From a virus: a stretch of 22,875 nt of DNA. The notes under the pieces are model-generated. The model was not told the origin of the DNA, did not search any database, and worked only from the letters and a program-made list of their open reading frames with translations. Both the position numbers and the translations under genes were made by a program. Below are positions 1-12,437 of this stretch, in pieces. The stretch is from the UHGV virus genome UHGV-0065784. One strand, given 5' to 3'. How positions within the stretch are numbered: the first letter of the stretch is position 1; each line of letters begins with the position of its first letter.

Positions 1-259
1 CGAGCAACTTGCCCCCGCCTGTGACGCCGAAATGGTTGCCGATGTGCGCGTACTGGGGGCAATCGGCGTGGTCGAAACCACTCGTCCGGTGAATATGGCA
101 GCGCTGCAAAAATTCTTTGTCGAACAGGGTGTCTGGATCCGGCCTTTTGGCAAACTGATTTACCTGATGCCGCCCTATATTATTCTCCCGCAACAGTTGC
201 AGCGTCTGACCGCAGCGGTTAACCGTGCGGTGCAGGATGAAACATTTTTTTGCCAATAA
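1..259 (+). CDS. bioA: 3' end of adenosylmethionine-8-amino-7-oxononanoate aminotransferase gene, 5' part outside window
   Basis: Reading frame is open from window base 2 through the stop at 257-259; C-terminal peptide ...[20 protein letters not shown]...[31 protein letters not shown] matches my recollection of E. coli BioA; synteny with ybhB downstream. Confidence 0.85.
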
Positions 260-470
260 CGGGAAGTCAGCGTGAGGGTTTCTGGCTACACTTTCTGCAA
301 ACAAGAAAGGAGGGCTCTTGACGGCTCCCCGCCCTGAATGACGGGGATTCCCACTTCAACAAGCCGAACCTAAGCCGCGTGCTGCGATTCAGGGTTTACA
401 GGCTCTCCGTGGGCTAACACTGCCAGCCCGGCAGCTTTAATATTACGTGCCGCGTTAATGTCGCGATCAT
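260..470 (-). ncRNA. Predicted omega-RNA (right-end RNA) region of the TnpB element, overlapping tnpB 3' end and downstream right end; extent not determined
   Basis: Established TnpB biology places the guide-RNA scaffold at the 3' end of tnpB and the right end; region contains several short stem-loops (291-309, 327-346). No folding or covariance model was run. Confidence 0.3.
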
Positions 471-1500
471 GGTCTGCGCCGCATTCAGGGCAGTGCCATT
501 TACGAACATTAAGAGGCATTTTTTGCATGGTGAAACCGCAGCAACTACAGCATTTTGAGGACGGTAAATACTGGTCAATGGCGACCACTGACCGCCCGGC
601 CCATTTGCCTTTGTACTGGAGCTGGCGAACAAGTTCGCTCCAGCCTGCGTCAGCTATTGCTTTAGACAGCTTCGGGTTGCGGATCATGTTTTTCACCTTG
701 AGGGATTCGACGCAAACAACTTGGTTTTCGTTAATCAGTTTGCGGGACAACTTGTGCAGATTGTCCATCCGGCAATCGGCGATTTTCGCGTGGAGTCGGG
801 CGACCTTTAAGCGGGCTTTAATTCGGTTTCTTGAGCCTTTTTGCTTCCTGCTTAAACGTCGCTGTAGCAGCGTTAATCGCTTCGCATATTTAGCGGTGTG
901 GCGGGGATTGTCGGTTTTGAATCCGGTATCGGTGACGAATAAATCTTTTAAGCCCACATCAATGCCGACCGTTTTAGCGGTAACAGGCATTGATACAGGT
1001 TCAAACTCACACAGGCAGGAAACAAAGTACCTGCCAGCGCTATCTCTGGAAATGGTAACGGTTGACGGCGCAGATGGTAATTCTCGACTCCAGCGAACAT
1101 CCAGCGGCGACTTGCTCTTTGCTATATACAACTCGCCGTCACGGTGTTTAAACGCGCTGGCAGTGAACTCAGCCACCTGTTTGTGCCGTTTGCTTTTGAA
1201 AGCCGGATATGCAGCTCGTCCGGCAAAGAAGTTAGCAAAGGCGGCTTGTTGGTGGCGCAACGACTGCTGGAGGGGAACGCAGGAAACATCATTCAGCCAT
1301 ATGTATTCAGGCTCTTTTTTGAGCGCCGTAAGGCGAGCGTTGGCCTGTAGATAACCGATCTTTTCTTTTCGCTCGTAGTACGCATCGGTACGCCAACGAA
1401 GGATGGAATTGTAGACGAAGCGCACACAGCCAAACGTCTGAGCTAAAAGCTCAGCCTGCTCAGTTGTCGGGTAAAACCGGTATTTATATGCGCGTTTCAT
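370..1500 (-). CDS. tnpB: TnpB (IS605 OrfB-family RNA-guided nuclease, RuvC-like plus zinc finger)
   Basis: 376-aa ORF; N-terminal OrfB-type region, RuvC-I-like GIDVGLKD, RuvC-II-like VVCVESL, zinc finger CCSCCG...CPECG, RuvC-III-like HDRDINAARNI; catalytic D/E/D positions appear intact. Confidence 0.9.
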   Translation of the reverse strand: MKRAYKYRFYPTTEQAELLAQTFGCVRFVYNSILRWRTDAYYERKEKIGYLQANARLTALKKEPEYIWLNDVSCVPLQQSLRHQQAAFANFFAGRAAYPAFKSKRHKQVAEFTASAFKHRDGELYIAKSKSPLDVRWSRELPSAPSTVTISRDSAGRYFVSCLCEFEPVSMPVTAKTVGIDVGLKDLFVTDTGFKTDNPRHTAKYAKRLTLLQRRLSRKQKGSRNRIKARLKVARLHAKIADCRMDNLHKLSRKLINENQVVCVESLKVKNMIRNPKLSKAIADAGWSELVRQLQYKGKWAGRSVVAIDQYLPSSKCCSCCGFTMQKMPLNVRKWHCPECGADHDRDINAARNIKAAGLAVLAHGEPVNPESQHAA

Positions 1501-1608
1501 GTGTTCACATACTAAAGAGGAAAATGTGATTATGCAAAGTACAGTTAGTCGGAAAACCGCCTCCTTTCCTCCCCGGTCTGAAGGCCGAGGTTTCCCGGAG
1601 GCATTCTA

Positions 1609-2085
1609 ATGAAACTCATCAGTAACGATCTGCGCGATGGCGATAAGCTGCCGCATCGTCATGTCTTTAACGGCATGGGTTACGATGGCGATAATATTTC
1701 ACCGCATCTGGCGTGGGATGATGTTCCTGCGGGAACGAAAAGTTTTGTTGTCACCTGCTATGACCCGGATGCGCCAACCGGCTCCGGCTGGTGGCACTGG
1801 GTAGTTGTTAATTTACCCGCTGATACCCGCGTATTACCGCAAGGGTTTGGCTCTGGTCTGGTAGCTATGCCAGACGGCGTTTTGCAGACGCGTACCGACT
1901 TTGGTAAAACCGGGTACGATGGCGCAGCGCCGCCGAAAGGCGAAACCCATCGCTACATTTTTACCGTTCACGCGCTGGATGTAGAACGTATTGATGTCGA
2001 TGAAGGTGCCAGCGGCGCGATGGTCGGGTTCAACGTTCATTTTCACTCTCTGGCGAGTGCCTCGATTACTGCGATGTTTAGTTAA
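1609..2085 (+). CDS. ybhB: PEBP-family (kinase-inhibitor-like) protein YbhB
   Basis: 158-aa ORF with GGAGG 7 nt upstream of ATG; sequence matches my recollection of E. coli YbhB (MKLISNDLRDGDKLPHRH...), PEBP-like motifs. Confidence 0.9.
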   Translation: MKLISNDLRDGDKLPHRHVFNGMGYDGDNISPHLAWDDVPAGTKSFVVTCYDPDAPTGSGWWHWVVVNLPADTRVLPQGFGSGLVAMPDGVLQTRTDFGKTGYDGAAPPKGETHRYIFTVHALDVERIDVDEGASGAMVGFNVHFHSLASASITAMFS

Positions 2086-2190: not shown

Positions 2191-2330
2191 TGAACAAGAA
2201 ACAGTAAAAAACATTAATATCAATGTGTTATGAAGATTTTTGTCTAAATAATAGACTACATAATACTGCAAAACACAGCATGTGCAGTCACTATGAATCA
2301 ACTACTTAGATGGTATTAGTGACCTGTAAC
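2191..2330 (-). promoter_or_regulatory. attP P-arm remnant with Int arm-type binding sites (lambda-like)
   Basis: Reverse complement reads ...CTGTTACAGGTCACTAATACCATCTAAGTAGTTGATTCATAGTGACTGCA..., near-identical to the lambda P arm as I recall it; arm-type motifs GCAGTCACTATG (2284-2295) and AGGTCACTAAT (2315-2327); sequence nearer the core is more diverged from lambda. Confidence 0.7.
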
Positions 2331-2533
2331 AGAGCATTAGCGCAAGGTGATTTTTGTCTTCTTGCGCTAATTTTTTGTCATCAGAACATATCGCACTCCA
2401 GAGAAGCACAAAGCCTTGTGTGTCTCATAGGCTATGAAACAATCATTTTACATGGTTACTTCACTACTTCCGCACAATATGATATCGTTCACAATCTAAA
2501 AATATTAATAATTTATCCATTACCGCGGTTAAT

Positions 2534-2559
2534 GCCCGTCGCTTCCAACGGGCTTTTTT
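2534..2559 (+). terminator. Rho-independent terminator, likely the tI/sib-region remnant of a lambda-like b-region
   Basis: gcccgt-cgcttcca-acgggc stem-loop followed by TTTTTT on the plus strand; lies in lambda-like sequence beyond the P arm, where lambda has tI. Confidence 0.5.
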
Positions 2560-2705
2560 GTAAATTATATTTTTATTACCTTATATTAATATTGGTAATA
2601 TGTCTGCATGATGTTTTATATTTAATTTCGTTGACGTCAATATTTTTTGCCAATGTACTTACTTCTTTATGTGAGCAGTTCATATTTTTGACGCCAACGA
2701 AACAT

Positions 2706-5651
2706 TTAGTGCTTCCCTTCTATTAAGTCTAACCTAGCTTTTATTCTTTCTATTTCTCTGCGCTGCCATGCCGCCTCGATATAGAATAAGAGATCAGGTC
2801 TGACCCCCCATCTAGATCCTGCTGGCGTTATTTCAACGCGCTCAATGATGTCTTCCATTACCATCACTGGATTATCATCCTCATCAACAATGATGCTCCC
2901 GTCATTATCAGTCAGCGGCATTTCCCTTTGGCCAGTAATGACGTCATCATATACTGCGGGATAATCGTCATAGCAAAGAAAGGCATAGCGGCATGTTGTG
3001 CTTTCTTCTTCCATGAGTCCGTGAGAAATAAGAACATCACGAAGTTGCTGCGCGATTACACCATGATGTATCCTCGCCCCTTCTTCCCCCTTTATAGCGA
3101 CAGCGTTCAGCCATTTATAAGCGATATACCTGACGTCACCCCAGGCATCCAGCAATGCTTCGTCAGGAGAGACCGGCTCTGTCTTTAATGTTCCGTCACT
3201 GGTAATCACAGGATTGGAGCCAAGATAAACTGTCGAGAACCTGTTTCCCGGACCACCAAGAGCATTTACATTATCAAGATAAGGTTTAACATCTCCGTTC
3301 TCAAAAAGATGTTCGAGTGCGTTATATACCGCGCGACGTGGAGTACTGCTTCCGGAACCATGCAACGTTATCATTGCACCATCTGCTGAAGACGTTGTTT
3401 CACCTCCGCTAACGATTAATCTCTGAGCGGTAACATCATCAGACGGTACTTTCTTCGCAATAATGGCGTAATTACCCTCAAGTTTGACTTCCGCGCGAAC
3501 TTGTCCTGATGTACCTGCATGGACAGTCAGTGACTGGACGGCAACATCATCTGTGAAATCAACGGGTACAGGAACCGTCCTCACGCCTGACGTCGACATA
3601 AAAGTAGGAAGCGTTCTGTTAGGAGTGGCTCCGTAGACAAAATCCCTTGAAACAAATTCTTCCTGTTTAATTTTCACCCTGAAACAATACAAATCAGCCG
3701 GGTGACCATCGTGAACATAAGGATATTTTCTGTTGTTATCCCCTATGCTCCATGGGTTTAGAAAGTCTTCCCCACCGAAAATGTAGTACAGCCAGTTGTC
3801 TTTGATACAAACTGAACCAACACCAACCGCAGAGTTAACTATTCCGCCCTGATAAATCTGATCAGTAACATTAACCCACTCTACATTATCCAGACTCCAC
3901 TCATTGACGTTAACTCTGGTCATAAATGTTCTTGGATAATTTCCTGCATAACGGTTATCAGGTTCTCCTCCTTCCCACTCACCAAATGCGCGCTCACTGC
4001 CAAAAATAATCAGCTCATCGCCAACTTTGGCAAAAGGAAGGTTTGAGTGATGAACATTATTTGGGAAGCGAAGAGAATTCCATGATGTACCTAAATCAGA
4101 GCTTCTGTGCAATGAACTACCGGGTTGAGTACTTAATGTCCCCCTGGTCGTCAGATACAGAATGCCATCATAATATTTTACACATGGCTCAGATGCATTC
4201 GCCTCATATTCTACAGGTATGCGTCTGCGAACAAAGCTACCAGGAGAACCGAAAGCATCAGAGAAATAGAGTATCCCAAGCTCGCGTGGATCAATATCAC
4301 CATTATGGTAGCCAACAGCAAAACTGTTATCGCTAATCGTCGCAAAACTGTGAATCTCAGTAACAGGAGTGCTTCCGTCAACAAAAGAAGGAATAGTTCC
4401 AAGACTGGTTTTTCTCCATGGTGACGAGTGAAATGATGTACCAAAACTCCAGTATCTACCCTCGTTATTCTGATCCACATCCTGGGTATTTTGCGTCGTA
4501 ACTGTAAAAGTATTTTTATCAATAACAGTAGTCACCGTCATATTCCCGGTAACACCTGTAACACCAGAGTTTGAGAAGTTGACAAAATCACCAGCAAATA
4601 ATCCGTGATCAGTAATGCGAATATAAGCGACTTGCTGATTTGCTGCTTTCGTTATACCACCATAAACGCGAAGGCTGCGACTCATTGGGCGATCCCACAA
4701 CTCTGCAACCTGCAGTTTATTTCCGCTCACGGTCCGCGTCTCAATTACAGCAAAAAGGCGATTTCTGACAACCCCCATACTCATGCAGTGATAGTTAACT
4801 GTGGGATAGTTTTCATGTAAATCTGTAAGCCATTCCGGCGTTGTCCAGGTCTTCCCGTCATCTCCTGAGCGAACCCATGCAACATGGAGGTTATTTACAC
4901 CATGGCGGTCTCCAGCCATAAAAGGCGCATAGATGACATTGTCATATACAAACGTTTTATCCTGCGTCCAGGCGTTGTACCACGGTGTATCTGTAATTTT
5001 AAATAACTCTCCCTGGATAAAATCTTCAGAAGCATAAAAAAGAGGCTGACCCGGTATTCTCTCAAATAAAAAACGAGCATTTTTAAATCGACTGACATCT
5101 GGAAGAGTTGATACTTTAAAAGTAAGCCCTCGCCCATCTATCTTTTCACCACCTGTTGCAACAGAAAGTAATTCTGATAGAGCTGATGTGTCATCATGAA
5201 CACCATCACCAATAGCCCCCCAACCTCTTACATCATAACTGTCTCTCCATCTTGCTATCTGAAGTTTTGGGTATTTATTCGCTCCATCTGGGTCTTCTAA
5301 TTGCTGCCGTAACTGATCAGGATCATACTTCAGCACATTAGGAAAATAGAACTGCTGCGCACCATACGCATCATAAACAGCCATAGAATGGCCTTGCACG
5401 GTAACGAATTTGGCAATCTGTCCGTTATATACCGGATATCCAGCAGCGTTAATGATTATTGGTTGCGAAACAGGAATGTGAGAACCGTCTTCGTTCTCTA
5501 CATAAACCTGAATCTGGTTTTCAGGATTTACCGGGTCAGTGTCAATTTTACCGATATAAATTTTGCCATTGGCTACGGCTTTAAAAGAACGCGCCATAGT
5601 GAAGAGTTGCGAAGGCATACTCACTACAACATTGGCTGTAATGTCTGTCAT
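2706..5651 (-). CDS. Tailspike: P22-like N-terminal particle-binding domain, sialidase-like (Asp-box) receptor-degrading domain, C-terminal intramolecular chaperone (S74-type) domain; probable endosialidase
   Basis: 981-aa ORF; N-terminus [43 protein letters not shown]... closely resembles the P22 gp9 head-binding domain; Asp-box motifs SGDDGKTW and SSDLGTSW; C-terminal ~150 aa resemble self-cleaving chaperone domains of endosialidase-type tailspikes; GGAG RBS 8 nt before ATG. Confidence 0.85.
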
Positions 5652-5719
5652 TTAATTTGCTCCAGATACAAGGAATCGCCGCAGCATTGCCACAGTGATG
5701 CATTATTAATCAAACAAAG

Positions 5720-5734
5720 AGACCACTGTGGTCT
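5720..5734. promoter_or_regulatory. 15-bp palindrome AGACCACTGTGGTCT, candidate Mnt-type operator in the mnt/tailspike divergent region
   Basis: Perfect inverted repeat around a single central base, sitting between the divergent starts of mnt (5798) and tailspike (5651); similar in style to the P22 mnt operator as I remember it (GGTCCACGGTGGACC). Confidence 0.55.
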
Positions 5735-5797
5735 TATTGAGGATGCAACCAGCAGATAATAAGATGCCGATCCACTCACAAAAGCGAGGCATCAAGA

Positions 5798-6049
5798 ATG
5801 GGAAGAGATGACCCGCAATTTAATCTGCGGCTACCTTACGAATTAAAGGAAAAACTAAAACAGCGAGCCAAATCCAATGGCCGCTCTCTTAATTCAGAAT
5901 TAGTTCAGATAGTGACTGATGCTGTATCAAAGCCATCCAAAATTTCAGGCTATCGAGACGATGCGGAACGCATCGCTGATGAGCAGTCAGAGCTTGTTAA
6001 GAAGATGGTGTTTGATACGCTGAAGGATTTGTACAAAAAACCCACCTGA
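5798..6049 (+). CDS. mnt: Mnt-like ribbon-helix-helix repressor
   Basis: 83-aa ORF MGRDDPQFNLRLPYELKEKLKQRAKSNGRSLNSELVQIV...DEQSELVKKMVFDTLKDLYKKPT, highly similar to P22 Mnt from memory; GAGG RBS; divergent from the late genes as in P22. Confidence 0.9.
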   Translation: MGRDDPQFNLRLPYELKEKLKQRAKSNGRSLNSELVQIVTDAVSKPSKISGYRDDAERIADEQSELVKKMVFDTLKDLYKKPT

Positions 6050-6066
6050 AGGTGGGTTAATTTTTG
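6041..6066 (+). terminator. Rho-independent terminator overlapping the mnt stop codon
   Basis: cccacc-tgaa-ggtggg stem flanked by an A-run upstream and ttaatttttg downstream. Confidence 0.5.
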
Positions 6067-6148
6067 CATTTACCTGGGCCATATTGACTACTTATAAAAT
6101 GAGATCAATATTTAATCGCCCAATAACGGGTGTATGTTGAGGTATATC

Positions 6149-6328
6149 ATGGCGAAAAAACCAGGTGAAAACACAGGAAAAAACGGCGGAATATACCAAG
6201 AAGTTGGCCCACGCGGCGGTAAGAAAGACAATTTTGCAACCGTCAAGGACAACGAAAGGCTTCCACCAACAACAAAGCCAGGTCATGGCTGGGTATTGGA
6301 TAAGCGAACTCCAGACAGCAAAAAGTAA
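6149..6328 (+). CDS. Small conserved phage protein (59 aa), YjzC-like by motif
   Basis: ATG at 6149 with GAGG 7 nt upstream and a TTGACT -35-like hexamer at 6085-6090; peptide MAKKPGENTGKNGGIYQEVGPRGGKKDNFATVKDNERLPPTTKPGHGWVL... resembles a small-protein family I recall as YjzC-like; the ORF-track start at 6134 is probably a 5-codon over-extension. Confidence 0.6.
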   Translation: MAKKPGENTGKNGGIYQEVGPRGGKKDNFATVKDNERLPPTTKPGHGWVLDKRTPDSKK

Positions 6329-6335
6329 TAATCAA

Positions 6336-6356
6336 GCCGGGTCACTCCGGCTTTTT
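6336..6356. terminator. Putative bidirectional terminator between convergent genes
   Basis: gccgg-gtcact-ccggc stem followed by TTTTT on plus strand and AT-rich on the other side; overlaps the last codons of the minus-strand gene. Confidence 0.45.
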
Positions 6357-6707
6357 GATATGTCGCTCGCAGAACTCAACAAGCCTGCTCATTAAGTAGC
6401 AGTAAGTCTCGTTGGCTCTTCCTGGTTCAACATCAACACCTACCCTTGAGCAGATATCGAATGCCATGTGAGCGCACTCATGGGCAATAGTAGATAGTTT
6501 GCCATTGAACACGCCTATCACATGCAAAACACCATTCTCGCTACTCATTGTATGAGACGCTCCGTTGGCGTCCGAGTCATGCACGTCAACGCCAAGTTTT
6601 TGATGCAGGCGTTGCCATTCTGGAAAGTCTCTACAAAACACAATTGTACCGCTCTCAAAGAGCGGAACGAGCATCTTTGGTACGTTTCCAATGTTAACTT
6701 TTTTCAT
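6342..6707 (-). CDS. Small HExxH protein, possible ImmA/IrrE-like (M78-type) mini metallopeptidase
   Basis: 121-aa ORF with AGGA 4 nt before ATG; motif HECAH followed about 20 residues later by [13 protein letters not shown], reminiscent of the HExxH...E-x-N-x-FA...LL signature of ImmA/IrrE peptidases; family assignment is from motif memory only. Confidence 0.6.
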
Positions 6708-6737
6708 GGTATCCTGCGCAAAACTAAGGAGGTTGGT

Positions 6738-7232
6738 GTGTCTGATTCTATGAGTTACGCTGTGCTAGTTGCCGCAACTCTATTTCTGGGGATAGGGTTG
6801 CAGATTGCGTGGTTCTTTTTTTCTAGTTTTATTAAACGTAAAAGAATTGAATCAAGGATATCTGAGATTTCTATTGCTATAGGGAAAAATGCTGAAAATC
6901 CAGAGAATGAGGCCTGCGCACTGAATTACCTTAAAGAAAAGTTTTCCCCTGAAAAATTTGAAAACAGAATTACTGATGCTCTTGGATTGGTAATATCAGT
7001 AATTCATATGCCACTAAGTTTGCTGATAACAGTGTGGTACTTCGCCATGATCGCCGGAAGAATATTTGGTTTCATGAATATAGAGCCTGTAGTTCTTTGG
7101 GTTCCAATGATACTGCAATTGTTGTTAAGCGTTGCTATCTTTATTTTTTCTGTTTTTATAAAAATTGTCTTCGGAAGATACCCCGGAGAAGCGAAGGGAT
7201 TTAATAAAGAATTCATAAAAACTATAAAATAA
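6738..7232 (+). CDS. Inner-membrane protein with three predicted TM helices at the sieA position of P22-like phages (candidate superinfection-exclusion protein)
   Basis: GTG start at 6738 preceded by AAGGAGG (6726-6732, 5-nt spacer); hydrophobic segments [75 protein letters not shown]; AT-rich; opposite orientation to late genes, between gp16 and mnt as sieA is in P22. No sequence match to SieA could be checked. Confidence 0.65.
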
Positions 7233-7254
7233 ATGCCGTCCTTGGCTTACAGTG

Positions 7255-9096
7255 CTACTGCCGGGTAGCTTCGTTAACTAAGAGCGGGCGCACGGCAGTA
7301 GCCGCCTGATTTAGCGCTCTTTCATAAGCTGGCGTTCCAGCTTTAGTGTTTGCCAGACGTAAGAGCGCATTCCTTGCTGCTTTGGATTCATACAAGCGCA
7401 TCATTGCACCGAAACCAGCCTCAAGCCCCATTGATACGCCAAGAGTCGTAGTTGCGCCAATCGTCCTTATCCTGTTGGCTTGCGATTGCCCCGTCTGAGT
7501 TACTACATTTGCGGTGTCTGATCTTGCTGCTTGCTGTAGAACTTCATGAAGAGCATCAAGTTCTTTCATGTGCTTTCCAGAAAAAATAGTGTTGTAAATT
7601 TCACCGCCTGACTGAGATTTCAGCTTATTAACTTCAGTGATGAACTTGGCTGGAGAGTCACCGGCCTTTTCCGCTATTTTGCTGACGTAAGCTGCACGCA
7701 TAGCATCTTTCCCTTTATCATCAAGTGCGCTCCAGATTCGTTTCACGTCAGATGGTTTTCTGCTTAATACAACGGTATTTATAAGTTCAGGACTGGCTTC
7801 ACTGCTTGCCTTGTTGAGCTTGTTAGCAATGTTTTTATTAAGCACCTTATTATAAACGTTTGCATAATCGGAATTTGCTTTAAGGTATTTTGCTGCGTCT
7901 GAAGCACCGAGGTTTTTGGCAACTGCGTTACGAAGGTCTTTTGACATTGCATTCTCTACCATATTGGTAGCTGCTTTTGCCTGGTTGGGGAAGACCATGG
8001 CATCTCCCTGAACATTAGATCTAAATGCTGTTCTGTGCTGGCGCAAGAGATCAAACGTAACATCCAAATCAGTTGCAGGGTTTGCTAATTCTTCACGTAG
8101 GTTACGCAAGGATGTAAGCAGGTTTTGATTGGCAGAAGTCCCAAGCCGTTCCTGTCTTGCGATCGCTGTATTCAGAGCATTCATGGTATTTGTGGTATCA
8201 ACTGCGGCATTACCCATTTTATTGGTGACGTCATTGATAACAGCGCCAGCGGCATCCTTCCGTCCCCTTAACGTGGTGGTCAGAGATCTCACCACATCAT
8301 CAGGGTTGTACTCACCAAAACGGTCAAAATAATTGCTTACCAGCTTACTACGCGTTGCATATTGCTCCGCTCGCTTTGAGCCTGTCCCGAGCAAAGCCCC
8401 CTCAGCATCTTGAGTAAGTCCGCGAGTGAAAGCATTTTTCGGCGGGATAACATCAGATGTCATTGGTGTCACGCCCATCGATTCTGATGTGGCAATTTTC
8501 TTTGCCACTTCTGGCGCAATATCACCTTTTATAGCCGTTATTCCACGCCCTATTCCCTTTGCTGCTGCGGAAAGAACACCCTGAGCGGCAAGGTTAACTC
8601 CGGCATTTTTAGCTGCATTTTGTGCGAAATCACCTTTCTGATTTGCGGCCTCTGCCAGTGATCCAATAGCCATGCTTCCTGCCGTTCCAACTCCTGGAAC
8701 TAAATACCCGCCAATTGTTTCTCCAGCTTGAGCGTAGGGGTCTGTCGGTCTGTCTACTGGACGATAAACATCATCCAAAACCTTGGGGCCACCAAGCCCC
8801 GGACTGATTGCATTAATCAGACTTGCGCCGCCCTGTAATACGTCAAATGGTATGTTTACCAGACCACGACCAGCCTGTTCTGCAATTTGCCCTGCACTTT
8901 GACCACCAGTGAGCCAATCGCCAGCTTGTTGCATCAATGATGGTTCTTCCCGTGTTGGTGCATTATTGGCCTGATTAACTGTTTGTTGCTGAACAGCCTG
9001 ACCAGCAAAATACTCATCAATGGCGGTGCCAATATCTTCCGTGCTCGTACCATCAGGGAAGGTAAATGTCTTACCGTTTGCAGTTACTTTCATCAT
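7255..9096 (-). CDS. Ejection (injection) protein, P22 gp16-like
   Basis: 613-aa ORF; N-terminus [30 protein letters not shown] resembles P22 gp16 from memory; last gene of the ejection-protein trio; 4-nt overlap with upstream gene. Confidence 0.8.
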
Positions 9097-10469
9097 TCCA
9101 CCGTAAATTGAATGCCTGATTTTGACGTGTAGCTACCTCCTGCTGATTGCTGAGTAGCTGGCTGTTGCCTTGATGATTTCTTCCCGCCATTACCGACATT
9201 AACGTTATATTGCTGGTTGTAATTGTCGGTATATTGCTGAATGTCGCGCATTGATTGTTGCAGTGCTTCAGGGCTTGAGAAATCAACCTGTGGCATACCT
9301 TGAAAATACATCTTTGCTTCTGCAACGGTGTTGATACCGGATGCCCCCATGTCTCTGGCTGCTGCAATGCCCTGATTCTGCATCTTTCCTTGGATTCGCT
9401 GTGCAGCGTTGTATAGTTTCCTCTGATCACCACCAGATGCACGGCTACGAATATCTGCACCAAGAGCAGGAGAACCTGAAGAGCCTGTAATGCCAGTCAT
9501 GAAGCCAAGATCGTCAATTGATGCACCAGAAATTGCATCAAGATCTTTCTTCATTGCGTAATTCTGCGCGCTTGCTGCCGATGTAGCCGGAGCGGCAATA
9601 GAACCAGCAGGAACGCGAACCATATTCCCCTCGTTGTCGATACCTTCGTAGAACGCATTAGCCCCAGCGCCGTGAAGCTTCCCGCCTACCGTTACAGTTC
9701 TGCCATCTGCTAACTGAACTGTACGCTCATTATTCCCAACCGCCCCTTTCATTGATGCTCTCTGCATCGATAAATCCTGACCGCGCATCGTGATATTCTG
9801 ACCACGCGCTGTTAGCGCCTCGCCAGCCTGATTGCTGCGGATTGTCTCTGCCAGTCTGCCTCGGTCAATCTCACGACCAGCTATCTTGTCCTGAACATTG
9901 AAGTAATCAATCGGACCAAGTGCAGCCATTCCAAGGTGATCAACAAACTCTGTGAAACCTTGTGGATTTTGCTGATACATTTTCGCCACATCCAGAGGGT
10001 CTACTCCGGCACGAGTAAGCTCAGATGAGTTGTTCTGCAACCATGACATCATGGCTTCTGGAGATGAAGCTGCGAGTCTGGCACTTGCTGCCAGTGTACC
10101 GACAGTGGAACGCTGGTCTTCATCGACAAATTTCATGCCGTTTCTTACAGCGTCAAGCTGCTCAGGATACTGTGATGCCAGCTTTCGCATTGCATCGCGG
10201 TCACCAGATGTATATGCATCAGCATAAGCCTGCTGAAACTCTTGCTGTCGCTTCTGCTGATCCATCTGCTTATACATATCCATGACAGATGAAATGCCCT
10301 GTAAAGCCTGCAAGCCAACGTTATTACGTCCTGAACGCTCCATCTCGTTATTCTGTCGAATGTATGCAAGCGTGGCGTCTGCATCACTTGCTCTTGGAGC
10401 GTTGGAGTTCATGCCGCCTAACCCGGCAAGAAGCGCGCCTGAATTACCAGCCTGTTGCCATGTAGCCAA
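9093..10469 (-). CDS. Ejection protein, P22 gp20-like
   Basis: 458-aa ORF in the gp7-gp20-gp16 position; size close to P22 gp20; translationally coupled to gp16. Confidence 0.75.
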
Positions 10470-10481
10470 GAGACACCTCCA

Positions 10482-11135
10482 TTAAAAAAGTGAACCAAGA
10501 AGACCGACGCCAGCACCAATTGCTGTACCCCAACCAGGCATGATTGCAGTACCTGCAGCTGCACCTGCTGCCGCTCCACCCAAGGCGCTCTGAAATCCTG
10601 ATGGTTTATTCGCATTAGCCGCAGATGCTGCCGCCTGCTGTTGATACAATTGGCTGACGTTGTTGGCATAGTTCTGCCCGGCGTTTGCCTGACCTGTAAG
10701 AGCGCCAAGGCCGATATTTGCCAGATTGTTGTAGTTGTTCATCTGACCTGACAGCCAGTTTTGACCGAGTGTAGGTGCGATTGCTGCTAACTGGTTTCCT
10801 GTTGCTGTAGAGCCTAATCCACCAGTTGCCTCTGCTGCTGCCAGACTCTGATAGCGCGCCTGCCCTGCAAGGTCTTTATACTGCTGAGAGTTGTAATACT
10901 GGTTAAGCGCCTGACCTTGCCCCTGAAGAGAGGAAAGATTCTGCAACTGTGATACGTACTGCTGAGCGAGTGGCGTGAACGGTGCAAGGTTTTGCATGTT
11001 CGTCTGCCACATTTCACGCTGCAGTTCGATGCCCTTTTCAGTTGCGCGGGCCTGCTCTTTTGCTCCGCTATCACTGCCACCTTTGCAGTAAACAGCTTTG
11101 CTGAGGTGCTTATTGGCAATCTGGAAAATTAACAT
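10482..11135 (-). CDS. Ejection protein, P22 gp7-like
   Basis: 217-aa ORF with GAGGAG RBS 7 nt upstream; Q/N/A/G-rich low-complexity sequence and hydrophobic Gly/Ala-rich C-terminus typical of gp7; position after gp14. Confidence 0.7.
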   Translation of the reverse strand: MLIFQIANKHLSKAVYCKGGSDSGAKEQARATEKGIELQREMWQTNMQNLAPFTPLAQQYVSQLQNLSSLQGQGQALNQYYNSQQYKDLAGQARYQSLAAAEATGGLGSTATGNQLAAIAPTLGQNWLSGQMNNYNNLANIGLGALTGQANAGQNYANNVSQLYQQQAAASAANANKPSGFQSALGGAAAGAAAGTAIMPGWGTAIGAGVGLLGSLF

Positions 11136-11592
11136 TCGTTAGCTCCTCGTATTTTGAGCGCGGTAACTGATAAATCGTGATGCCTACAGGCTTTCCATTG
11201 CTGGTATAAGCATCATCAAGGTGACCAACACGGGTAGCGCCAAGCAAACGGATAATTGCCCGTCCGTATTTCGTGGTGTCAGGAACCATAGTGATGCTGT
11301 TAAGGAATGGTGAGTTTTCGAGAAGCCATTTGCAGAATAATCGATGCCCTTGCAGTGCATATTCGCCACGGAATCCGGGGTCGTACACCGCATGGCATTC
11401 AACAACGCTATGCCAGAAGTTACGCACTTCATGCACTCCGACCAGCATCAGTCCTTCGTAGATGCCGAGGTATACCGCATCAGGCTTGATGTAGTATTTG
11501 TCTCCACTGTCTACGATATTTCCCGTGTTTGCCGGGTTGTTGAGGAATTCTGCAAGCTTCACCGGATTATCGATGAGCTTTATTTCCATCAC
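11110..11592 (-). CDS. Internal head/ejection-associated protein, P22 gp14-like
   Basis: 160-aa ORF; size and position between the needle gene and gp7 match P22 gp14 (161 aa); ATGA overlap with the needle gene. Confidence 0.65.
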
Positions 11593-12437
11593 TGCTCCGC
11601 AATGATTTTGATGGTTGTGGCAGTAAACGCCGCACCATTAGACTGAATGGTTAACGTGCTGCCATTTGTGGCAAGAAAGCCGTCTTTATCAACGCTGAAG
11701 AACGTAGCTAACAAGATGTTATCGGTTGTTGTCGCCGAGTTGCGACTGCTTACCAGTGTGTCAGGAACAGAGCCGGAAAAGGTTAGCTGCATTGACCTGT
11801 TGGCGGTTCCGCTGGGCCACGTCCCGACGATCGACAGCTTGAAGAACAAGGTTTTGTTCTCGTTGAACACAACCATCTTGTTGTTAACGGTGTCGAAGAA
11901 TGGTGCCAACGTGCCGGATGATGGCGTGAGCGTTTTCAGCAGGCTAACAAGGTTGGTCGGCGCTGTCGGGATGGTTACAGATACACCAGAGTAAACAACC
12001 TCTGACTTTTTGCGAGTAGTGGCATACTCCAGAGCATCGATGCGCGTTTCATGGTCTGAAACCTGCGATTCCAGCGACTGAACTCTGGTATCAAGCGAGG
12101 CAATATCGCTTTCATTCTGAGCTATTCGTGTTTCATGTTCCTGAAGAGTTGATTCTGCCTGGCTGATTCGCTCCTCATGATTAACAAGCGTTGCTTCCGC
12201 AGCAGAAATTCGCTGCTCATGGTCAGCGAGAATCACATCCTGCTCATCGTTCCTGACCTGTGCATCATAAGCGCCCTGACCAGCCTGATTTGCCTTCCCG
12301 GCGATTGCACCGACATCAGCTCCCTGATTTATGACATATAGTAGGTAAGACTGGCTGAATATATTGCGTGGCAAAATTGAAGCATCAAGGCGCGTAGCCT
12401 GAACCACAACAGGATCATTCAGTGATGAATCAACCAT
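11589..12437 (-). CDS. Tail needle (P22 gp26-like) with C-terminal knob extension
   Basis: N-terminus [68 protein letters not shown] closely resembles P22 gp26; coiled-coil heptads (HE.RI repeats); extra ~100-aa C-terminal domain as in Sf6/HK620-type needles; TAATG stop/start overlap with gp10. Confidence 0.85.

Follow-up and report, generated by a model that had tools for sequence, protein, structure and literature searches.

An insertion sequence between bioA and ybhB

The DNA analysed here is a 22,875-nt stretch of the virus genome UHGV-0065784 (hereafter the window, meaning the whole stretch). Between the 3' end of bioA and the start of ybhB, it carries an insertion sequence (IS) of the IS200/IS605 type that encodes a TnpB protein and that we identify below as ISEc42. 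The features of the locus are given in Table 1, together with the sites of related elements, which are designated by L numbers.

The limits of the element were obtained by comparing filled with empty sites. On the minus strand, the element starts with TAGAATGCC and finishes with GCCGTCAA, and its junctions read GAGTTTCAT / TAGAATGCCTCC ... GGGGAGCCGTCAA / GAGCCCTCC, slashes marking the element boundaries. The plus strand across both junctions reads GGAGGG CTC / TTGACGG...CATTCTA / ATG AAA CTC. In Escherichia coli SF-468, the empty site is ...AAACAAGAAAGGAGGG TTC ATG AAA CTC, and the empty-site sequence GGAGGGTTCATG is present in nearly all E. coli genomes devoid of the element. Empty sites can be written GTTTCAT/GAACCC and filled ones GTTTCAT/IS/GAGCCC, without any target-site duplication. 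In all unrelated sites compared (P1-like phage-plasmid, Serratia, Citrobacter, Salmonella, Klebsiella and metagenomes), the similarity of relatives begins directly after a flanking TCAT and stops at GTCAA. Since relatives share the same boundaries at unrelated sites, the element comprises the 1291 bp from position 318 to position 1608. A preliminary description of the locus had given it as 260-1608; its upper limit is correct, but positions 260 to 317 are native bioA-ybhB spacer and lie outside the element. The same description had taken the arrangement for an insertion rather than for the universal state of E. coli, and had placed the right end towards bioA and the tnpB stop codon about 110 bp from that of bioA. 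All this holds: the site is empty in nearly all other E. coli genomes and filled in 342 of 5426, the right end lies at 318 on the bioA side, and the distance between the two stop codons is 111 nt.

The TTCAT motif found 5' of the left end, the transposon-adjacent motif (TAM), pre-exists in the empty site, and its core TCAT is found beside the left end at all 37 independent sites of the family that we compiled. Folding of the DNA at the left and right ends reveals an imperfect subterminal hairpin in each, and terminal inverted repeats are absent; the right-end hairpin, which is also helix 6 of the predicted RNA described below, shows compensatory changes among relatives. Beside the right end, filled and empty sites differ by a single base at position 315, GAG being also found in 19 of 20 further metagenomic copies. 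No empty site bearing the filled-type base (GAG; CTC on the plus strand) was found in the 5426 genomes, where the best full-length matches have one mismatch. A GAG-type ancestral empty site was rejected, the change being specific to filled alleles, and drift is its simplest explanation.

Table 1. Features of the bioA-ybhB locus and sites of related elements (L numbers) discussed in the text
Feature	Positions	Strand	Remarks
bioA, 3' end	1..259	+	Stop codon 257-259; untouched by the element
Predicted guide template	298..317	-	5'-GAGCCCUCCUUUCUUGUUUG-3'; directly 3' of the right end; native spacer
Displaced native ybhB Shine-Dalgarno AGGAGG	308..313	+	Now 1.3 kb from its ATG; empty site reads GAAAGGAGGGTTCATG
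Single-base difference beside right end	315	+	C in filled sites (GAG on minus strand), T in empty sites (GAA)
ISEc42 element	318..1608	-	1291 bp; from filled versus empty site; same ends in relatives at unrelated sites
Omega-RNA-like scaffold (predicted)	318..435	-	118 nt; six helices including right-end hairpin; RNAalifold consensus, covariation
tnpB	370..1500	-	376 amino acids; RuvC D181 (958-960), E265 (706-708), D347 (460-462); zinc finger CxxC...CxxC
Left end	1501..1608	-	108 nt; subterminal imperfect hairpin (CCTCCGG...CCGGGGAGG); DNA fold, conserved in relatives
Promoter-like site facing ybhB	1504..1533	+	TTCACA-18-GATTAT with upstream TG; weak, a lead only
Replacement Shine-Dalgarno-like GGAGG	1597..1601	+	Complement of left-end stem arm; 7 nt before ybhB ATG
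ybhB	1609..2085	+	Coding sequence intact
TAM TTCAT (core TCAT)	1609..1613	-	5' of left end; reverse complement of ATGAA (ybhB start codon and two bases)
Tailspike, endosialidase-type	2706..5651	-	981 amino acids
Start-codon sites of the family, first part	Window 1609-1613		L003, L008-L011, L015, L017, L020, L026, L029, L030, L078, L105
Start-codon sites of the family, second part			L110, L112, L113, L115-L117, L119, L120, L122-L124, L127, L131, L134, L139, L165, L166
Sites with stop codon supplied by right end	L165:2485-2488; L166:2482-2485		Also L009, L017, L112, L122

An apparently intact tnpB gene without a transposase gene

The TnpB protein matches the Pfam families HTH_OrfB_IS605 (E = 8.8e-22), OrfB_IS605 (6.8e-26) and Cas12f1-like_TNB (2.5e-23), and aligns end to end with the structures of the ISDra2 TnpB (8exa, 8h1j and 8bf8; E about 9e-75). 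In this alignment, D191, E278 and D361 of ISDra2 correspond to D181, E265 and D347 of the window protein, and its CCSCCG and CPECG motifs align with C331/C334 and C351/C354, both CxxC pairs being kept. The RuvC and zinc-finger motifs noted earlier from the sequence as apparently intact are all found. RefSeq labels the same gene "RNA-guided endonuclease InsQ/TnpB family protein". Besides tnpB, the element only includes 108 nt from its left end to the start of the gene and 52 nt after its stop codon. The ratio of non-synonymous to synonymous divergence (dN/dS) between this tnpB and its relatives is 0.07-0.14, which indicates that the TnpB family is under strong purifying selection.

The absence of a tnpA gene was also borne out. 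A tblastn search of the whole 22.9-kb window, using an IS200 TnpA sequence as query, detected no Y1 transposase; the same query did detect tnpA in locus L081. Furthermore, no tnpA gene is located within 2 kb of tnpB in any Enterobacterales relative. Among 150 related loci, the sole complete Y1 transposase gene beside a relative's tnpB is that of L081 (positions 1557-1922; Endozoicomonadaceae; Pfam Y1_Tnp, E = 1.6e-41), whose TnpB is about 67% identical; L040 has a weak partial match to tnpA at its contig end. An autonomous IS605-type element carrying both tnpA and tnpB is ruled out, no Y1 gene separating the left end from tnpB or diverging from the latter. The element belongs to the IS1341 type of IS200/IS605 insertion sequences, encodes tnpB only and is non-autonomous.

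A predicted omega-RNA and its guide

The preliminary description expected an omega-RNA overlapping the 3' end of tnpB and the right end, and a structure backed by covariation was found there. An Rfam scan of positions 1 to 2400 at E values up to 1 gave no omega-RNA family, its sole match being a chance small nucleolar RNA inside tnpB. The last 223 nt of the element were aligned with those of 28 relatives (alignment A1, 29 sequences), and the structure calculated by RNAalifold is confined to columns 106-216, i.e. window positions 435..323. The predicted scaffold extends over the final 66 nt of tnpB and the entire non-coding right end. It comprises 30 pairs in six helices, with 95.7% of the cells paired and 19 pairs changed on both sides. 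None of 500 shuffles reaches these values, and at most 49% of the cells are paired if the 3' partners are slid by one to three columns. Two of the helices lie inside the coding region, where a CCCAC/GUGGG helix is replaced as a whole by CUUGU/ACAAG in three of the aligned sequences. The same helices are recovered when the window sequence is folded alone, and all 30 pairs are retained in the window copy. Moreover, synonymous divergence drops from 0.66-1.64 in the first 900 nt of tnpB to 0.24-0.48 in its last 123 nt, which fits a second constraint on this stretch.

The guide of TnpB consists of 16-20 nt transcribed from the flank located 3' of the right end (Karvelis 2021, PMC8612924). It had been proposed that the guide would here be templated by the 3' end of bioA. 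Since the right end, GCCGTCAA, stops at 318, the template lies instead at 317..298, in the spacer and 39-58 nt past the bioA stop codon (257-259). This template is the former leader of ybhB, including the complement of its Shine-Dalgarno sequence. According to what is known of TnpB biology, the tnpB transcript would be processed to an omega-RNA with 16-20 nt of this flank (GAGCCCUCCUUUCUUG...) at its 3' end. TnpB loaded with this RNA would cut DNA in which TTCAT is followed by the guide sequence (TTCAT-GAGCCCTCCTTTCTTG); the empty bioA-ybhB allele is such a target, apart from a difference at guide position 3. The filled locus would be spared because GTCAA stands in place of the TAM; this right-end junction is the only stretch of the window that resembles a TAM followed by the guide.

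Identity as ISEc42 and distribution in E. coli

A published inventory lists ISEc42 as an element of the IS1341 group without OrfA, with an OrfB of 376 amino acids, a size of 1294-1295 bp and cleavage sites TCAT at the left and TCAA at the right (Table S1, PMC9956272). All the attributes listed for this ISfinder element (IS200/IS605, IS1341 group) fit those of the window element, and no difference was found; its 1291 bp plus the 4-nt motif amount to 1295 bp and therefore fit the listed size. Its frequency fits as well: about 6-7% of E. coli genomes possess the element, essentially as a single copy, and the inventory reports 165 copies, 161 of them scored intact, in 164 of 2467 genomes (PMC9956272). 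Other properties expected of this group were found too, namely the TnpB domains, the absence of tnpA, hairpins at the ends and insertion 3' of a fixed motif without duplication. The window element is therefore the already catalogued ISEc42, as identified by its attributes rather than by alignment to the ISfinder sequence. The comparison with IS200/IS605 reference elements suggested earlier thus yields ends and a target motif that agree with Table S1, along with an existing name that the preliminary description had missed. Neither the bioA-ybhB site, nor the abutment on a start codon, nor an omega-RNA is mentioned in the published entries; a literature search (TnpB with bioA/ybhB; ISEc42) found no description of an insertion between bioA and ybhB. 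As first reported, the observation matters little: the insertion sequence already has a name, its site is polymorphic, and elements of this kind have been counted in thousands of genomes.

A comparison with E. coli genomes lacking the insertion, as had been proposed, was made on 5426 complete genomes and reveals an insertion polymorphism. The bioA-ybhB site is filled in 342 of them (about 6%) and empty in nearly all others. There are also 342 copies with at least 95% identity, and no genome has more than two matching places; the other matches in this set are relatives with about 81% identity, mostly found on 43 plasmids. All 20 metagenomic copies examined are located at the same bioA-ybhB site. 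Carriers include Nissle 1917, 536, E2348/69, NRG 857C, ATCC 25922-type strains and MCJCHV-1, whose copy is 100% identical to that of the window; ISEc42 is also listed in mobile-element inventories, e.g. of ST1193 isolates. These recognised carriers belong to phylogroup B2, and MCJCHV-1 is an ST1193 strain.

These data bear on whether ISEc42 still moves in E. coli with the help of a resident Y1 transposase, such as that of IS609, ISEc41 or IS200. The hairpins and cleavage motifs of the two ends are intact and conform to the consensus of the family, and IS605-type elements that encode a Y1 transposase and have TCAA at their right end are common in E. coli (PMC9956272). Against this, the 342 high-identity chromosomal copies equal the 342 genomes filled at one site, the inventory counts hardly more copies than genomes (165 in 164), and the left motifs of the resident elements (TTAT, TTAG and CCAT) differ from that of ISEc42 (PMC9956272). 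Ongoing movement is therefore extremely improbable. Since all E. coli copies occupy one site, the element is immobile in practice and vertically inherited. The element would have entered single-stranded DNA 3' of TTCAT through a Y1 transposase acting in trans, and the copy would then have been passed vertically in one set of E. coli lineages. From the K-12 coordinates, we reason that TCAT lies on the lagging-strand template at this map position, as single-strand insertion of IS200/IS605 elements predicts.

A probable stranded nuclease-plus-guide module

Taken together, these data make it very probable that this copy of ISEc42 is a stranded, transposase-less, but structurally functional nuclease-plus-guide module. 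Without a transposase, the element cannot move and its nuclease is probably idle. It might act only when an empty allele arrives by recombination or horizontal transfer; cutting of this allele would favour retention of the element. Such a role, mostly idle in the absence of excision, is envisaged by analogy with ISDra2 and with Geobacillus elements (PMC10055086).

The alternative is that the element is a decaying relic, a dead passenger whose intact look is due to a young insertion, with no TnpB or omega-RNA made or acting. The lack of a transposase and the single fixed site would fit a relic, and several observations weigh in the same direction against a functional module. The E. coli copies are 99.7-100% identical, so that the intact open reading frame (ORF) could reflect recent ancestry rather than selection. 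Indeed, the 16 intact metagenomic copies display only three distinct codon changes (two synonymous and one non-synonymous), too few for a selection test. Broken copies exist, some of them frameshifted; they number four among the 20 from metagenomes and include at least one found in a genome. No promoter for tnpB, let alone a strong one, passes a consensus scan; TTGCAT-17-TAGTAT, located 8 nt before the tnpB ATG and recognised by eye only, would imply a leaderless mRNA. Position 3 of the guide, in the TAM-proximal seed, mismatches every empty-site allele and could weaken cutting of the natural target. Furthermore, the literature search on this element found inventory mentions only. On the other side, 161 of the 165 copies inventoried in E. 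coli were scored intact (PMC9956272), the window copy keeps every catalytic residue and all 30 RNA pairs, and the family as a whole appears to be under strong purifying selection. We therefore consider a relic unlikely, although clearly the most serious of the alternatives, and retain the stranded module as the preferred reading. Well-studied carrier strains hold an apparently complete native TnpB/omega-RNA pair whose TAM and guide are defined, which makes them convenient for studying a stranded TnpB in its own host.

Consequences for bioA and ybhB

The effect of the insertion on bioA and ybhB had been left open. While bioA is untouched, a swap of ribosome-binding sites at ybhB had escaped notice. 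In the empty site, the two genes are 58 nt apart and no terminator-like hairpin separates them; they are co-transcribed in K-12. The left end stands immediately against the ybhB start codon, so that the native Shine-Dalgarno sequence now lies on the far side of the element and a GGAGG complementary to the left-end stem arm takes its place (Table 1). Hence ybhB loses its native ribosome-binding site and its 58-nt link to bioA, and would gain a ribosome-binding site from the left end. As its ribosome-binding site is displaced and replaced, ybhB, not bioA, is the gene most directly affected. A promoter-like site also faces ybhB, but scans for promoters and terminators gave counts of sites not above those of shuffled sequence. 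At 420-434 on the strand running from bioA to ybhB, a weak terminator-like hairpin followed by a T-run is scored in the complement of omega-RNA helix 1; it could attenuate read-through from bioA into the element. Expression studies of bio-ybhB in carrier strains should allow for the 1.3-kb separation and for a ribosome-binding site supplied by the transposon.

These features raise the question of co-option by the host, in which TnpB/omega-RNA or the left-end signals would control ybhB or bioA, or bar DNA carrying the empty allele. Besides supplying a ribosome-binding site at near-ideal spacing and a promoter-like site, the insertion is stably kept in several lineages and its guide matches the old ybhB leader. 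Yet RuvC is intact, unlike in the TnpB-derived repressors called TldR, the chromosomal match of the guide lacks a TAM, and the insertion is absent from 94% of E. coli genomes. Moreover, the same end architecture occurs at dozens of unrelated genes, which makes it a property of the element rather than of the locus. Co-option is thus very improbable, and the stranded module is again the reading that we favour.

Insertion against start codons across the family

The preliminary description rightly placed the insertion between bioA and ybhB, but missed that the TAM is the reverse complement of ATGAA at the start of ybhB. This is not peculiar to the window. We compiled 37 independent TCAT-type sites (the window, a P1-like plasmid, 15 sites in contigs taken from one genome per species, 18 sites in metagenomes and two annotated plasmids). 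In 32 of them (Table 1), the TCAT beside the left end reads, in reverse complement, as the ATGA that starts a host gene divergent from tnpB; the corresponding ORF runs away from the left end and has at least 116 amino acids or stays open to the contig end. Pfam N-terminal domains (for example GST_N, Tex_N, NAD_kinase, TauD, Cation_efflux, Y_phosphatase3, Phage_tail_U and DUF805) begin at profile positions 1-3 within the first residues of such ORFs. In annotated records, the start codons of traW, traX and a nucleoside triphosphate (NTP) pyrophosphohydrolase gene stand exactly against the left end. The abutting ORFs therefore correspond to genuine genes that begin at their true N-termini.

As a control, we considered the remaining TCAT sites of these flanks, only 22% of which start an ORF of 100 amino acids or more; with a cruder gene model, 3.8% of non-disruptive TCAT sites are at predicted start codons, and a back-of-envelope expectation for E. 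coli is about 20%. Even against the latter, 32 of 36 non-disruptive sites are far beyond chance. A literature search (IS605 with start codon or Shine-Dalgarno; ATGA with operon) found no description of such a pattern.

The other end of the element and the flanks add to this pattern. ATGA is also a common 4-nt overlap of stop and start codons in operons. On the strand of the host gene, the right-end TCAA reads TTGA, and its TGA is the stop codon of the upstream co-directional gene at six of the 29 sites whose right flank can be read (Table 1). The protein sequence of the gene upstream of traX is unchanged, as a reconstructed ATGA overlap predicts. At eight more sites, the upstream stop codon is at most 60 nt away, which places many insertions within operons. 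Complements of the displaced native ribosome-binding sites, of CCTCC or CTCC type, are found in the right-end flanks at distances that vary, and by our own count from the sequences the left end puts a GGAGG-type motif 6-8 nt ahead of the host ATG at 31 of the 37 sites. Donation of a ribosome-binding site is not universal: the subfamily with a TTTGCGCGAG left end (L025, L026, L028-L030 and L134) is devoid of the motif, although four of its six sites (L026, L029, L030 and L134) are still on start codons. A fixed spacing between TCAT and CCTCC was rejected as a sign of targeting; it varies from about 3 to 12 nt, like that of natural ribosome-binding sites, and therefore does not discriminate.

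We tentatively propose, as a possibility somewhat short of even, that the ISEc42 family consists of insertion sequences docking on start codons, whose ends rebuild the operon junction. The right-end TTGA would give the upstream gene its stop codon and the left-end GGAGG-N7 would give the downstream gene a ribosome-binding site. If so, IS200/IS605 elements could insert into operons with little harm. The target might also be recognised beyond the 4-nt motif, for instance through its anti-Shine-Dalgarno CCTCC mimicking the left-end stem arm. The pattern may come from targeting, from the survival of harmless insertions or from a chance property of the hairpin sequence. Should it be adaptive or mechanistic, this habit would be a new harm-limiting strategy in transposon biology. 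It might be shared by elements with a CCAT motif, whose reverse complement ATGG also has a start codon; ISEc41, ISEc89 and ISSen6, transposase-bearing elements of E. coli and Salmonella, have CCAT as left motif (Table S1, PMC9956272).

Several relatives are worth describing in their own right. A relative with about 81% identity occurs in P1-like phage-plasmids (43 plasmids of E. coli). Its copy in plasmid pMB9880_2 (L003; NZ_CP103764.1, 2500-3770) is inserted between a hypothetical gene and the NTP pyrophosphohydrolase gene, with its left end abutting the start codon of the latter. A 61-nt left-end fragment with about 90% identity is found without tnpB in MF150084.1 (1501-1561). Similarly, several hundred Klebsiella IncF plasmids carry isolated left-end (61 nt) or right-end (71 nt, 93% identity) fragments devoid of tnpB, which may be solo ends or mini-elements.

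Prophage surroundings

The core of the lambda attachment site, GCTTTTTTATACTAA, occurs once in the window, at 2176-2190 on the minus strand, immediately past ybhB. Beyond it lies a P22-like prophage (2300-12000) related to CUS-3, phiv205-1 and vB_EcoP-720R6. This prophage and its endosialidase-type tailspike suggest a strain with a K1 capsule. The prophage surroundings are unrelated to ISEc42.

Comparison with known systems

Sister elements of ISEc42 in the IS1341 group include ISEc90, ISSen18, ISSen20 and the copy of the P1-like phage-plasmid, whose TnpB proteins are 81-87% identical to that of the window and of the same length and which share its right end and RNA structure. A sister subfamily (L012-L014, L018, L019, L022, L130 and L155) encodes TnpB proteins with about 80-83% identity, has a left end starting with CAATTTGCGCGTAAGACC... 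and is flanked by TTAT/TTTAT. The TAM has therefore switched within a group of closely related nucleases. With TTAT/TTTAT as their TAM, the elements of L012-L014, L018, L019 and L022 cannot sit on an ATG.

ISDra2 from Deinococcus radiodurans resembles ISEc42 by the full-length homology of its TnpB, identical catalytic and zinc residues, and a TCAA right end. Its TAM, TTGAT, has a 5-nt form similar to TTCAT, and both omega-RNAs overlap the 3' end of tnpB. Unlike ISEc42, ISDra2 is an autonomous, multicopy element of 1.74 kb with tnpA and tnpB; ISEc42 has 1.29 kb, occupies one site and its activity is predicted. TldR proteins are nuclease-dead TnpB-like repressors that have lost RuvC residues and whose guides target TAM-bearing host promoters (PMC10705468). 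They share with ISEc42 the TnpB fold, a guide derived from the flank and, in some cases, residence at one locus without transposase. The identification of the window protein as a TldR is ruled out by its intact triad, its full-length C-terminus and the TAM-less chromosomal match of its guide. In IStrons, an IS200/IS605 element is joined to a group I intron (PMC4227781). Should the start-codon pattern be adaptive, IStrons and the ISEc42 family would represent two routes by which IS200/IS605 elements limit the harm that they cause: IStrons splice themselves out of the mRNA, whereas elements of the ISEc42 family would rebuild the stop codon, the ribosome-binding site and the ATG.

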